Virus record (IMG/VR): IMGVR_UViG_2713896776_000004
Direction: 5' to 3' (one strand)
Length of the DNA: 7,927 nucleotides
Source: a virus
Lineage: Duplodnaviria; Heunggongvirae; Uroviricota; Caudoviricetes
Of the stretch, positions 1 through 7,927 are shown piece after piece (position 1 is the stretch's first letter; each line of letters opens with the position of its first letter). The notes under the pieces were generated by a model that was not told where the DNA came from, searched no databases, and saw nothing but the letters and a program-made list of their open reading frames with translations. The translations under genes and the position numbers were made by a program.

Positions 1-60
1 GACAAAGTCATCGGGCATTATCTGAACATAAAACACTATCAATAAGTTGGAGTCATTACC
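1..60 (+). mobile_element. IS1 terminal fragment: 3' end of insB plus right inverted repeat
   Basis: Frame 1 of nt 1-45 reads DKVIGHYLNIKHYQ*, which I recognise as the InsB C-terminus. The sequence ends ...AATAAGTTGGAGTCATTACC at nt 60, the IS1 terminal inverted repeat. Confidence 0.9.
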
Positions 61-150
61 GGCATCTTCAGTAAATACTGGGTTACTGATAGTGACACCA
101 ATTTCAAAACAACCTTCAGACGTATTAACGTTTGGTAATAACGTTTTCAT
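61..150 (-). pseudogene. dicB: dicB 5' fragment (codons 1-30), truncated by the IS1 end
   Basis: The reverse complement of 61-150 starts at ATG (148-150) and reads MKTLLPNVNTSEGCFEIGVTISNPVFTEDA, matching the DicB N-terminus as I remember it. The frame runs straight into the IS1 terminus at nt 60. A GAGGA Shine-Dalgarno lies at 158-162 on the - strand. Confidence 0.7.
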
Positions 151-167
151 TATCGCGTCCTCAACAA

Positions 168-315
168 TGAATTTTGTGATGCAGTGCCTGGTGCCTCCAG
201 GTGACGTTAACCAGTTAACAATTAACGCCGGATACAGAGAATCCACCCATAACACTGTTTTTGGTTTTAACTGTTCCGCGTGCGCTCAGCCGCATTCACC
301 ACATCACAAAATTCA
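168..315 (-). repeat. 14-bp perfect inverted repeat pair (168-181 and 302-315) flanking the dicF-dicB spacer
   Basis: TGAATTTTGTGATG at 168-181 and CATCACAAAATTCA at 302-315 are exact reverse complements. They sit just 3' of the DicF terminator and just 5' of the dicB Shine-Dalgarno. Confidence 0.5.
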
Positions 316-324
316 CTTTAAAAA

Positions 325-377
325 GGGCGGCAGAGCAGTCACGGAGTAAAACTGATACCGCCAAACGTCACCAGAAA
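325..377 (-). ncRNA. dicF: DicF small regulatory RNA (ftsZ/manX-targeting sRNA of the dicB operon)
   Basis: The reverse complement of 325-377 is TTTCTGGTGACGTTTGGCGGTATCAGTTTTACTCCGTGACTGCTCTGCCGCCC, followed by TTTTT. This matches the 53-nt DicF sequence from memory, including its GC-rich 3' stem and U-tract. Confidence 0.8.
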
Positions 378-402
378 ATTGATAACAGAGGGCGTTGCAG
401 CG

Positions 403-424
403 GGGTTGTCACTTAAGCGTATGG
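403..424 (+). repeat. Left copy of a 22-bp imperfect direct repeat (GGGTTGTCA core); also the half-site of a 9-bp inverted repeat with 431-439
   Basis: GGGTTGTCACTTAAGCGTATGG at 403-424 matches GGGTTGTCAGTTAAACTCGTGG at 1956-1977 at 17 of 22 positions, with an identical 9-mer core. TGACAACCC at 431-439 is the reverse complement of the core. Confidence 0.4.
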
Positions 425-755
425 TCAACCTGACAACCCGGTGTCCTCAACGGGGAAGGAATAACCCCGCCATACTTACCGCCGCGCCATTTCGCGGGTT
501 GCCACAACCGGAAGCGCACGGTCGACGAAAATTTAACGACAGGCTATCTATGAACCAGCTACCTCGCCGTGCGCTTTCGCGTTATGGTCTGACTTTTCAG
601 GGAAATATCCTTTCAGTAAACTGTCAGTGCCGGATGCTCACCCGTGTCCGGCGCACGCACTCCACCTCACCCGTGGAGAACTCCTTAATTACTAACCTTA
701 GCTTTGTTGATTAGCTACTAACGCGGGTAGCCGCGTGTCCACTATTGCTGGGTAA

Positions 756-1685
756 GATCAACCATCTTACGGTGAACTGATCCAGATTGATGGCTCACCT
801 CATGACTGGTTTGAAAATCGAGGCCCCAGATGTACACTGATCGTTTTCATTGATGATGCCGCCAGTGCGTTGATGGCGTTGCGTTTTGTGCCTGCTGAAA
901 CAACCCGGGCTTACATGGAAACCCTCCGGGGTTACCTTAATGATCATGGCGTACCGCTCGCTCTCTACTCTGATAGACACAGTATATTCAGGGTAAATAA
1001 CCCAGAGCGGGAAGGTGAGCTGACCCAGTTCACTCGTGCGATAAAGACACTGGGCATCGAGCCAATCCATGCCAACAGCCCGCAGGCAAAAGGGCGGGTA
1101 GAGCGCGCCAATCAGACACTACAGGACAGGCTGGTCAAAGAAATGCGGCTTCAGAATATCAGTGATATTGAAACAGCAAATGCATGGTTGCCGACTTTTA
1201 TTGAAGCCTATAACAACCGGTTCGCTACGTCGCCTCGTACTACTGATAATGCTCATCTTGATGTGCACCATTCTGAAGAGGAACTGGGTTATATCTTCAG
1301 CCTACAGGCGAAGCGCGTTCTGTCTAAAAATCTCACTTTCCAGTACAAAAGCAGTGCGTTTCAGGTACGCAGTGAGAGCCGGGGATATCGACTTAGGCAT
1401 TCGGTTGTTACTGTATGCGAGAACTTTGACGGTGAAATTAACGTTCTGTATGACGGGAAAGCGCTGGGCTGGGAAAAGTATGTTGATGGCCCGGAGCCTA
1501 TACCACTGGATGATGAAAAGAGTGTCCATGAACGAGTGGATAATGCCCGTATTGATTTACGCTCAAAATACTATGTTAAACCTAAAGCTGACCATCCCTG
1601 GCTTACGCGCCGAACGCAAAGTCATCAGCAAGTTAAGCCCCCGAAGTTACCTAAAAAGAAGCCTGATCCCGATAAAAAAGATTGA
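756..1685 (+). pseudogene. rve (integrase-core) DDE transposase remnant, N-terminal domain missing
   Basis: The open frame from 756 contains IQIDGSPHDWFE...LIVFIDDAAS...LYSDRHSIF...ANSPQAKGRVERANQTLQDRL, a D, D, E integrase-core pattern, and ends in a lysine-rich tail. An in-frame stop at 753-755 leaves no room for an N-terminal DNA-binding domain. The first ATG is at 873. The IS family is not assigned. Confidence 0.6.
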
Positions 1686-1977: not shown

Positions 1978-2084
1978 CGATTTAAATAGACTAATTGGGA
2001 GTGCGTCCATTACTTATATCTTGTAATGTTAACTATCAGAAATGATACAAAGATAATATGTCTTTAAAGAAAAGGCTGATGGCG

Positions 2085-2107
2085 AAAAGTGGCCCGATGA
2101 GGGCCAC
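2085..2107 (-). terminator. Putative intrinsic terminator downstream of flxA
   Basis: A 7-bp perfect stem GTGGCCC/GGGCCAC with a 5-nt loop lies at 2089-2107. On the - strand it is followed by TTTTCGCC, a short U-run, so it is probably weak. Confidence 0.4.
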
Positions 2108-2121
2108 AATACGGCTGTCAC

Positions 2122-2454
2122 TTAGACGTAAATATCAATGGTGCCAGCGGTATTTGTATCGTCTTTTTTCTCTTCTTTTTTATCAGGCTGAACTGTCGCG
2201 TCTTCATTCTTTTTCTCTGCCTGCTGCCTTAACAACTGCTCCAGTTGAGCCCAGAGGCTTTCAATTTGCTTCTGTACCAATGCAGCCATTTCTTTTTTCT
2301 GCTGTGTCGTCATCCCCTCTTCCGATGAGATTTTCCCAAGCTTTTCAGTCAGCACCTGAATTTGTCTTGTGATTTTGGCTATTTCTGATGTTCCTTCCGG
2401 GGCGGAGTTGTTTGAAATAACGGTTGAGGTATTTCCCTGAATTGTGACAGACAT
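2122..2454 (-). CDS. flxA: FlxA (FliA-regulated prophage protein)
   Basis: The 110-aa translation MSVTIQGNTSTVISNNSAPEGTSEIAKITRQ...TAGTIDIYV matches FlxA of the Qin prophage as I recall it. A GGAG Shine-Dalgarno precedes the ATG and a sigma28 promoter lies upstream. Confidence 0.9.
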   Translation of the reverse strand: MSVTIQGNTSTVISNNSAPEGTSEIAKITRQIQVLTEKLGKISSEEGMTTQQKKEMAALVQKQIESLWAQLEQLLRQQAEKKNEDATVQPDKKEEKKDDTNTAGTIDIYV

Positions 2455-2986: not shown

Positions 2987-3226
2987 ATGGGTAGCATTAA
3001 CCTGCGTATTGACGATGAACTTAAAGCGCGTTCTTACGCCGCGCTTGAAAAAATGGGTGTAACTCCTTCTGAAGCGCTTCGTCTCATGCTCGAGTATATC
3101 GCTGACAATGAACGCTTGCCGTTCAAACAGACACTCCTGAGTGATGAAGATGCTGAACTTGTGGAGATAGTGAAAGAACGGCTTCGTAATCCTAAGCCAG
3201 TACGTGTGACGCTGGATGAACTCTGA
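2987..3226 (+). CDS. relB: RelB antitoxin
   Basis: The 79-aa translation MGSINLRIDDELKARSYAALEKMGVTPSEALRLMLEYIADNERLPFKQTLLSDEDAELVEIVKERLRNPKPVRVTLDEL is near-identical to E. coli RelB from memory. Its stop overlaps the relE start (TGATG). Confidence 0.95.
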   Translation: MGSINLRIDDELKARSYAALEKMGVTPSEALRLMLEYIADNERLPFKQTLLSDEDAELVEIVKERLRNPKPVRVTLDEL

Positions 3227-3513
3227 TGGCGTATTTTCTGGATTTTGACGAGCGGGCACTAAAGGAATGGCGAAAGCTGGGCTCGACGGTACGTGAACAG
3301 TTGAAAAAGAAGCTGGTTGAAGTACTTGAGTCACCCCGGATTGAAGCAAACAAGCTCCGTGGTATGCCTGATTGTTACAAGATTAAGCTCCGGTCTTCAG
3401 GCTATCGCCTTGTATACCAGGTTATAGACGAGAAAGTTGTCGTTTTCGTGATTTCTGTTGGGAAAAGAGAACGCTCGGAAGTATATAGCGAGGCGGTCAA
3501 ACGCATTCTCTGA
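3226..3513 (+). CDS. relE: RelE mRNA-interferase toxin
   Basis: The 95-aa translation MAYFLDFDERALKEWRKLGSTVREQLKKKL...VISVGKRERSEVYSEAVKRIL matches RelE. It is translationally coupled to relB. Confidence 0.95.
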   Translation: MAYFLDFDERALKEWRKLGSTVREQLKKKLVEVLESPRIEANKLRGMPDCYKIKLRSSGYRLVYQVIDEKVVVFVISVGKRERSEVYSEAVKRIL

Positions 3514-3584
3514 ACCAAAGCATGACATCTCTGTTTCGCACCGAAGGTGACACTTCTGCTTTGCGTTGACAGGAGAAGCAGGCT

Positions 3585-3740
3585 ATGAAGCAGCAAAAGG
3601 CGATGTTAATCGCCCTGATCGTCATCTGTTTAACCGTCATAGTGACGGCACTGGTAACGAGGAAAGACCTCTGCGAGGTACGAATCCGAACCGGCCAGAC
3701 GGAGGTCGCTGTCTTCACAGCTTACGAACCTGAGGAGTAA
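3585..3740 (+). CDS. hokD: HokD (RelF), Hok-family small membrane toxin
   Basis: This 51-aa ORF is below the ORF-track size cutoff. It reads MKQQKAMLIALIVICLTVIVTALVTRKDLCEVRIRTGQTEVAVFTAYEPEE, with a hydrophobic helix and the Hok C-terminal motif. An AGGAG lies 11 nt upstream of the ATG. Confidence 0.9.
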   Translation: MKQQKAMLIALIVICLTVIVTALVTRKDLCEVRIRTGQTEVAVFTAYEPEE

Positions 3741-3808
3741 GAGACTCGGCGAGTGAGAAATCCCTCGCCACCTCTGATGTGGCAGGCATCCTCAACGCAC
3801 CCGCACTT

Positions 3809-3840
3809 AACCCGCTTCGGCGGGTTTTTGTTTTTATTTT
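3809..3840 (+). terminator. Intrinsic terminator of the relB-relE-hokD operon
   Basis: The stem is CCCGC-ttcg-GCGGG, followed by TTTTTGTTTTTATTTT. Confidence 0.8.
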
Positions 3841-3956
3841 CAACGCATTTGAAGTTCTGGATGGTGCCGGAATAGAATCAAAAATACTTAAGTAGCGCGC
3901 AGGGATAAGAGGGATGGTCCCTTAAAGGGGAGAGCTAATTATCCGGAAGGATTCTG

Positions 3957-4208
3957 ATGATGAACATCGAAGAACTGCGTAAAATTTTTTGTGAAGATGG
4001 CCTCTATGCTGTGTGCGTTGAAAATGGAAATATTGCTAGTCATTACCGCATTGTGTGTTTGCAAAAAAATGGGGCTGCGTTAATTAATTATGTGGATGCC
4101 CGAGTGACGGACGGATTTATCTTGCGCGACGGTGAGTTTGTCACTTCATTACAGGCATTGAAAGAGATCGGAATAAAAGCTGGCTTTTCTGCTTTTTCAG
4201 AAGAATAA
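3957..4208 (+). CDS. rem: Rem-like prophage protein of unknown function
   Basis: The 83-aa translation MMNIEELRKIFCEDGLYAVCVENGNIASHYRIVCLQKNGAALINYVDARVTDGFILRDGEFVTSLQALKEIGIKAGFSAFSEE fits my memory of Qin Rem. It has a GGAAGG ribosome-binding site, is AT-rich, and sits immediately downstream of hokD as in K-12. Confidence 0.75.
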   Translation: MMNIEELRKIFCEDGLYAVCVENGNIASHYRIVCLQKNGAALINYVDARVTDGFILRDGEFVTSLQALKEIGIKAGFSAFSEE

Positions 4209-7867: not shown

Positions 7868-7927
7868 GGTAATGACTCCAACTTATTGATAGTGTTTTAT
7901 GTTCAGATAATGCCCGATGACTTTGTC
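7868..7927 (-). mobile_element. IS1 terminal fragment (right inverted repeat end), inverted relative to the copy at 1-60
   Basis: GGTAATGACTCCAACTTATTGATAG... at 7868-7927 is the exact reverse complement of nt 1-60. Confidence 0.9.

Follow-up and report, generated by a model that had tools for sequence, protein, structure and literature searches.

The closest described system is the dicBF operon (ydfABC-dicF-dicB-ydfD) of the Qin prophage of Escherichia coli K-12. The small RNA DicF of this operon is made through processing, by RNases III and E, of a polycistronic transcript whose start is dicBp, upstream of ydfA (PMC10448788). Ragunathan et al. is cited for dicBp as the DicF promoter, and there is 'no evidence for other promoters' for DicF (PMC10448788). 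Both dicB and ydfD are toxic when expressed, and Rem is an antirepressor that relieves DicA repression of dicBp (PMC10448788). DicB is highly toxic, with DicA as its repressor (PMC10448788, PMC4967827). DicB without its last 8 residues remains lethal (Yang et al. 2016, PMC4967827). Colonies grow and lethality is lost with DicB deltaC12, deltaC16, and deltaC20 and with an N-terminal 26-residue fragment, and the N-terminal fragment and truncations have a weakened residual activity when overexpressed (PMC4967827).

The window analyzed here is the whole stretch of 7,927 nt, and its positions are preceded by w. Both of its ends are the same IS1 terminus, 60/60 identical to annotated IS1 and facing inward; these symmetric 60-nt ends have the look of a short-read contig broken at a repeat. 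The region w729..61 was colinear with the K-12 dicBF operon, and the spacers were kept. The alignment was gapless with 99.6% identity, and its 3 mismatches (w638, w629, and w569) were all in the ydfC-dicF spacer. The locus differed from K-12 Qin in that dicBp, dicA, dicC, ydfX, ydfA, ydfB, and most of ydfC were missing and dicB was split by IS1, whereas the downstream IS2 and the exonuclease truncation of K-12 were not seen here. The results suggested, with a probability of about 0.78, that the window is what remains of the early region of a Qin-like cryptic lambdoid prophage in E. coli, in which the dicBF operon is cut to a 669-bp internal fragment between IS scars. The locus is accordingly read, with the same probability, as stepwise decay of a toxic prophage module and not as selective retention of a small RNA. 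The features are listed in Table 1.

Table 1. Features of the 7,927-nt window discussed in the text.
Feature	Position	Strand	Evidence
IS1 terminal 60 nt, end near the 3' end of the transposase gene	1..60	+	60/60 against annotated IS1A-family element (L003 3102-3161)
dicB 5' fragment, codons 1-30	61..150	-	Translation, K-12 identity, DicB profile 1-30/62
dicF-dicB spacer with dicB ribosome-binding site	151..324	-	Identical to K-12
DicF sRNA gene, 53 nt; terminator U-run to about w318	325..377	-	Rfam, K-12 match, fold
Retained ydfC-dicF spacer, the DicF precursor leader	378..717	-	3 mismatches against K-12
ydfC last 12 nt including stop codon; deletion endpoint	718..729	-	w729 corresponds to K-12 L005 2882; ydfC annotated 2675-2893
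IS3 end stub, 33 nt, transposase-proximal end (TGATCTTACCCAGCAATAGTGGACACGCGGCTA)	728..760	-	Identical to annotated GF31 IS3 end
ISNCY-family (IS1202/ISEsa1-like) transposase fragment, antisense to DicF	761..1685	+	NF033594; RefSeq annotation in EC09 and 33-6
flxA (w2454..2122) and terminator-like hairpin/U-run (about w2106-2080)	2080..2454	-	EC09 annotation; fold
rem, antirepressor of DicA	3957..4208	+	Annotation, PF27490 Rem
Second IS1 end, inverted relative to left copy	7868..7927	+	Same terminus as w1-60

The DicF gene was complete, as the initial annotation had stated. Rfam RF00039 matched w376..325 on the minus strand with 76.7 bits (gathering score 48, E = 4.5e-16, model positions 1-52 of 52), and all 53 nt of w377..325 were the same as K-12 MG1655 DicF. 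The 3' end folded as the expected terminator hairpin (-15.9 kcal/mol), followed by UUUUU. A leader of 352 nt was retained 5' of DicF. The fold of a 243-nt leader plus DicF, in which the RNase III precursor structure was sought, gave z = -1.3, indistinguishable from shuffles. Among 5,426 E. coli genomes, 3,969 had DicF, the median copy number being one. The dicF-dicB spacer is bracketed by a perfect 14-nt inverted repeat, with one arm (w302-315) immediately 3' of the DicF terminator and the other (w168-181) immediately 5' of the dicB ribosome-binding site. This repeat is shared by K-12, 33-6, 22F46, and EC09 and may form the duplex at which the reported 3' processing by RNase III takes place. 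The long open reading frames that run antisense to dicB, dicF, and the leader, or across them, were w47-349 (+, 100 aa) and w379-714 (+, 111 aa), for which no family support was found. The leader of the near-identical chromosome L009 described below also carries a publicly annotated 54-aa gene (9437-9601). These long frames and the annotated leader gene are most likely spurious.

The dicB ATG is at w150, and the 30 codons (MKTLLPNVNTSEGCFEIGVTISNPVFTEDA) that reach w61 were identical in DNA to K-12 dicB and were followed by 60/60 nt of IS1, so the earlier claim that IS1 cuts dicB after codon 30 was borne out. In the alignment with K-12 dicF-dicB proposed as a check, DicF and dicB codons 1-30 were both identical; the w61-150 peptide was that of DicB, and DicF differed at no position. 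The exact matches of DicF, the dicB stub, and the IS1 end to characterized sequences indicate that these assignments are not due to chance. DicB profiles covered residues 1-30 of 62 only, with 61.9 bits for NCBIfam NF049927 (cut-off 100) and 64.5 bits for Pfam PF05358. Judged by these partial matches, dicB in the window is a gene fragment, and not the full-length gene of about 62 aa.

Extension of the dicB frame through a standard IS1, of which the window itself holds only 60 nt, predicted a 56-aa DicB(1-30)-GNDSNLLIVFYVQIMPDDFVMQLHRF fusion, in which residues 31-62 are replaced by 26 IS1-encoded residues. The exact 56-aa peptide (P0001) was found on 6 contigs in public data. Public assemblies already contain the dicB::IS1 allele of the window, annotated there as 'division inhibition protein'. 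The fusion keeps the essential N-terminus and is missing 32 C-terminal residues; the stub has none of the C-terminal region, beyond the last 8 residues, on which lethal inhibition of division depends. Because published C-terminal truncations lose lethality (PMC4967827), strong attenuation of the 30-residue stub is expected. This fusion is the only form in which DicB could still be made here, and without a promoter little of it should be produced. The initial annotation had described the strain as possibly lacking a functional DicB. This is to be amended to a truncated fusion predicted to be strongly attenuated, whose non-function we infer, with the weak residual activity of the N-terminal fragment reported in PMC4967827 kept in view.

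The far side of the left IS1 was read outside the window, in the near-identical genome L009 (GCA_900448805.1, a 4.82-Mb E. coli chromosome contig), which was 99.99% identical over the 7,927 nt with 1 mismatch (w5666). The left IS1 in L009 was a complete element of 768 bp (10091-10858) with the 9-bp direct target duplication GAAGATGCC on both sides; the minus-strand copy of GAAGATGCC in the window is w61-69. Its DDE transposase gene (DDE_Tnp_IS1) was antisense to dicB and in the window reads toward w60. The far junction of a simple insertion would read ...GGCAGCATCACC / GAAGATGCCATTAACAAG... (IS1 end, duplication, and dicB codon 31 onward), and the predicted far junction was ...GTAAGTTGGCAGCATCACC / GAAGATGCC / ATTAACAAGAGAAAACAAG.... 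In L009, dicB codons 28-62 were found directly beyond IS1, and in silico removal of IS1 and one duplicate gave the exact K-12 dicB. The continuation of dicB with a target-site duplication, for which the initial annotation had suggested searching, was therefore present in L009. Beyond the split dicB were ydfD, an exonuclease gene, xis, int, and rspB, with int beside rspB, as at the K-12 Qin site. As judged from L009, the left IS1 is a simple transposition into dicB by which the gene was split and nothing was deleted.

The same dicB::IS1 junction was found on two metagenome contigs. One (L010, ENA ERZ19693104) was 100% identical to the whole window, and the other (L011, ERZ27238074) was identical across the 3,169 nt it spans. 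The lineage thus occurs in the communities sampled by these two metagenome assemblies. Among 5,426 complete E. coli genomes, the exact IS1/dicB junction was not found as a single-piece match. Two full-coverage junction matches in complete genomes were ruled out as joins to IS1 in ydfD. A third IS1 in L009 was located beside speG (19450-20147), within 10 kb of the locus, which marks the lineage as IS1-rich.

The right IS1 had a different origin from a simple insertion. In L009, it was also 768 bp (1516-2283) but had no target duplication, and it replaced 5,160 bp of JMF1 (L006 15018-20177). The JMF1 genes replaced were an HTH gene, essD, ydfR, rrrQ, rzpQ, cspI, gnsB, ydfO, and ynfO. Compared with JMF1, the right IS1 marks the site where an IS1-associated deletion took out the lysis and cold-shock module and joined ybgA to the nohA side. 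A right-hand junction common to JMF1 and TUM9868 was ruled out; the IS1 copy was elsewhere in those genomes, and the matches had been joined.

The two IS1 copies can be read in other ways. IS1 could mark an IS1-mediated deletion or rearrangement in the source of the window, with the 3' half of dicB absent or located elsewhere: the window ends 60 nt into IS1, the other bounding copy is tied to the 5.16-kb deletion and has no target duplication, and two inverted copies would permit inversion. This was considered very unlikely in view of the simple insertion with its 9-bp duplication in L009, the gene order colinear with K-12 and JMF1, by which a transposed or inverted segment was ruled out, and the identical junction on both metagenome contigs. 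The IS1 ends also face the 7.8-kb segment between them from both sides, as in a composite transposon with dicF and toxin-antitoxin genes as cargo. Such a transposon is scarcely credible here. L009 retains the native Qin order (nohA side, ybgA ... flxA, dicF, dicB', IS1, 'dicB, ydfD, exo, xis, int, rspB), the left IS1 is flanked inside dicB by a 9-bp duplication of its own, and the right IS1 by none; neither a relocated unit nor one outer target duplication, the signs of an IS1 composite transposon, was found. Simple insertion of the left IS1 within a native Qin-like prophage remained the preferred reading.

The upstream part of the operon was lost by a separate event. Homology to the dicBF operon stopped at w729, with only the final 12 nt of ydfC left. 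The IS3 stub has its last 2 nt (TA) in common with ydfC, a microhomology at the deletion join. With 33 nt of one end and no transposase, the IS3 stub appears as a scar and not as an element, and this 33-nt stretch matched many unrelated sites per genome, as expected of an IS end. The adjacent transposase gave 312 bits with NF033594 (cut-off 250) over profile positions 125-365 of 368, and about the first 124 residues were missing. By this match, it is a truncated and inactive member of the ISNCY family. For K-12 ydfX, dicC, dicA, ydfA, ydfB, and ydfC, blastn and tblastn showed no trace, either within the window or across 20 kb surrounding the L009 locus. By these searches and the junction, the deletion took dicBp, dicA, dicC, ydfX, ydfA, and ydfB and left only 12 nt of ydfC. 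The rem gene was intact, although its target DicA and the promoter controlled, dicBp, were gone from the prophage; by gene content, rem is an orphan antirepressor.

The deletion junction between the IS3 stub and ydfC was found in only 1 of 5,426 complete E. coli genomes, EC09 (NZ_CM169492.1). The Qin-like prophage of EC09 was 100% identical over w61-7867 and had intact dicB and ydfD, neither flanking IS1, and no dicA nearby. It therefore represents the state before the IS1 insertions. Since EC09 has the deletion junction together with an intact dicB, the upstream deletion came first and the IS1 insertion second. Strain 33-6 carried the same ISEsa1 remnant, yet about 5.7 kb of immunity region and ydfABC lay between the remnant and dicF. 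The steps shown by these genomes are as follows. IS3 inserted into an already truncated ISNCY (ISEsa1-like) transposase gene, and a deletion then removed the sequence between a point 31-33 nt into IS3 and the last 12 nt of ydfC, which is the state of EC09. IS1 then inserted into the AT-rich dicB after codon 30 with a 9-bp duplication, and 3' dicB, ydfD, exo, xis, and int remained just beyond it.

The effect of the upstream deletion on DicF was considered. The known route of DicF biogenesis, processing of the dicBp transcript, was absent, as dicBp, ydfA, ydfB, and most of ydfC were missing. A consensus scan of the DicF strand at w1-2800 found no sigma-70-like site, and promoter and terminator scans were blank. 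A permissive promoter scan of w2200..300 gave 1 weak match, fewer than the 6 +/- 2.4 of dinucleotide-shuffled sequence. On the DicF strand, the first gene upstream was flxA, 1.7 kb away, and its 3' side had a GC-rich terminator-like hairpin with a U-run (-17.3 kcal/mol, z = -2.8). On the EC09 chromosome, the IS3-junction query matched 4 places by megablast, the query with leader and dicF added matched 5, and a junction-plus-dicF chimera matched 4. The fifth place was ruled out as a second dicF by this chimeric-query control and was leader homology only. At megablast sensitivity, no second dicF copy was found in the chromosome of EC09, the nearest complete genome.

Because dicBp is deleted, no substitute promoter was found, and megablast showed no second dicF in the EC09 chromosome, DicF regulation was probably lost along with DicB. 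On the sequence and the literature, DicF is probably a promoterless orphan. The proposal of the initial annotation that the strain may keep DicF-mediated regulation was thus not supported, dicA and dicC also being deleted. Having lost the only promoter known to produce DicF, the locus is most likely not transcribed for either inhibitor, except by any low read-through. In EC09, intact dicB and ydfD are tolerated with no dicA nearby, as would fit a silent locus.

It is doubtful, against this background, that DicF is still working and only DicB was lost, with a promoter other than dicBp transcribing through dicF. DicF, its terminator, and the 352-nt leader are intact, and the same strand carries flxA and ydfV farther upstream; the candidates would be read-through from flxA/ydfV, a cryptic antisense promoter within the transposase fragment, or a hybrid one at the IS3 stub. 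With the stable processed DicF and a leader with presumed processing sites kept, any crossing transcript could yield DicF, and low read-through or a non-consensus promoter, for example antisense in the transposase fragment, may be beyond the reach of sequence scans. The deletion of dicBp, together with all that lay upstream of the final 12 nt of ydfC, argues against a working DicF, as do the literature, in which no other DicF promoter is given (PMC10448788), the absence of a promoter-like site on the DicF strand, the terminator-like hairpin after flxA, and the tolerance of intact dicB and ydfD by EC09 in the same promoterless context. That dicF is transcribed by read-through of a new input, for example the flagellar-regulon gene flxA or antisense across the transposase remnant, is very unlikely. 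If true, with the dicA/dicBp control and DicB gone, a toxin module would have become a stand-alone sRNA gene with its regulation rewired. The insertion in dicB might also have been positively selected to silence toxic DicB after the loss of DicA, and not be a neutral event in an IS1-rich genome. DicB is highly toxic, its repressor gene dicA is deleted here, and IS1 insertions in dicB recur at no fewer than seven sites. Selection is nevertheless unlikely. Because dicBp went in the same deletion, derepression of dicB by the loss of DicA is not expected; in EC09, dicB is intact in the same context; and the genome has several IS1 copies within 20 kb. The GC content of dicB also fits the preference of IS1, and the recurrence may be that of a hot spot. 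Stepwise decay of the module remained the preferred reading.

IS1 was found in dicB at at least 7 different positions in public data. In 22F46, IS1 lay around dicB codon 7, oriented as in the window and flanked by a 9-bp duplication of its own (L003 3080-3890). Peptides P0002-P0005 and P0007 had an IS1-encoded tail as in P0001, with 15, 39, 40, 41, or 45 DicB residues kept. In-frame IS1 insertions in dicB always add the same IS1-encoded tail. Among the 5,326 matches of the protein search, many were unrelated genes fused to this tail, which makes the 'DicB' family look bigger than it is. No published dicB::IS1 allele was found among the papers searched. IS1 prefers AT-rich targets. The GC content of dicB was 36%, compared with 46.5% for the window, which fits this preference, and the recurrence in dicB may reflect an IS1 hot spot only.

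DicF, DicB, IS1, IS3, the ISNCY transposase, and the Qin-like prophage are all known components, and the locus is a case of ordinary IS-driven decay of a cryptic prophage. The wider significance is small. It is a clean case of stepwise IS-driven erosion, in which promoter and repressor went first and the toxin gene was then split. For annotation, it is a caution that an sRNA gene perfect by Rfam can be a promoterless orphan. A survey of presence and absence would score DicF as 'present' where the strain probably cannot make DicF. That the intact DicF gene lacks its promoter is a useful correction to the earlier reading.

Other prophages were compared with the locus. 22F46 was similar in the IS1 orientation, the 9-bp duplication, and the tail, and differed in the insertion site and in that the upstream ydfABC and immunity region were retained. 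GF31, 20AR0354, 33-6, and JMF1 shared the ISEsa1-remnant/ydfW/flxA/relBE/hokD/rem backbone with independent IS-associated losses around dicBF, here described from their annotation. In 20AR0354 (L007 1402-1915), dicB was kept with a DUF977 fragment 38 nt upstream, and dicF and ydfABC appear to be gone. In GF31 (L008 2536-3075), ydfABC-dicF-dicB was kept, and an unrelated gene fragment started 27 nt upstream of ydfA; dicA and dicC appear to be gone, and dicBp was probably lost as well. 33-6 had IS1 in ydfD, and JMF1 had lost the whole dicBF block. By the EC09 annotation, relBE (type II) and hokD (type I) are toxin-antitoxin modules of Qin. In contrast to the decayed dicBF module, relB, relE, and hokD (window 2987-3718 and about 3730-3890) carry annotations as intact genes in EC09, whose sequence there is 100% identical.
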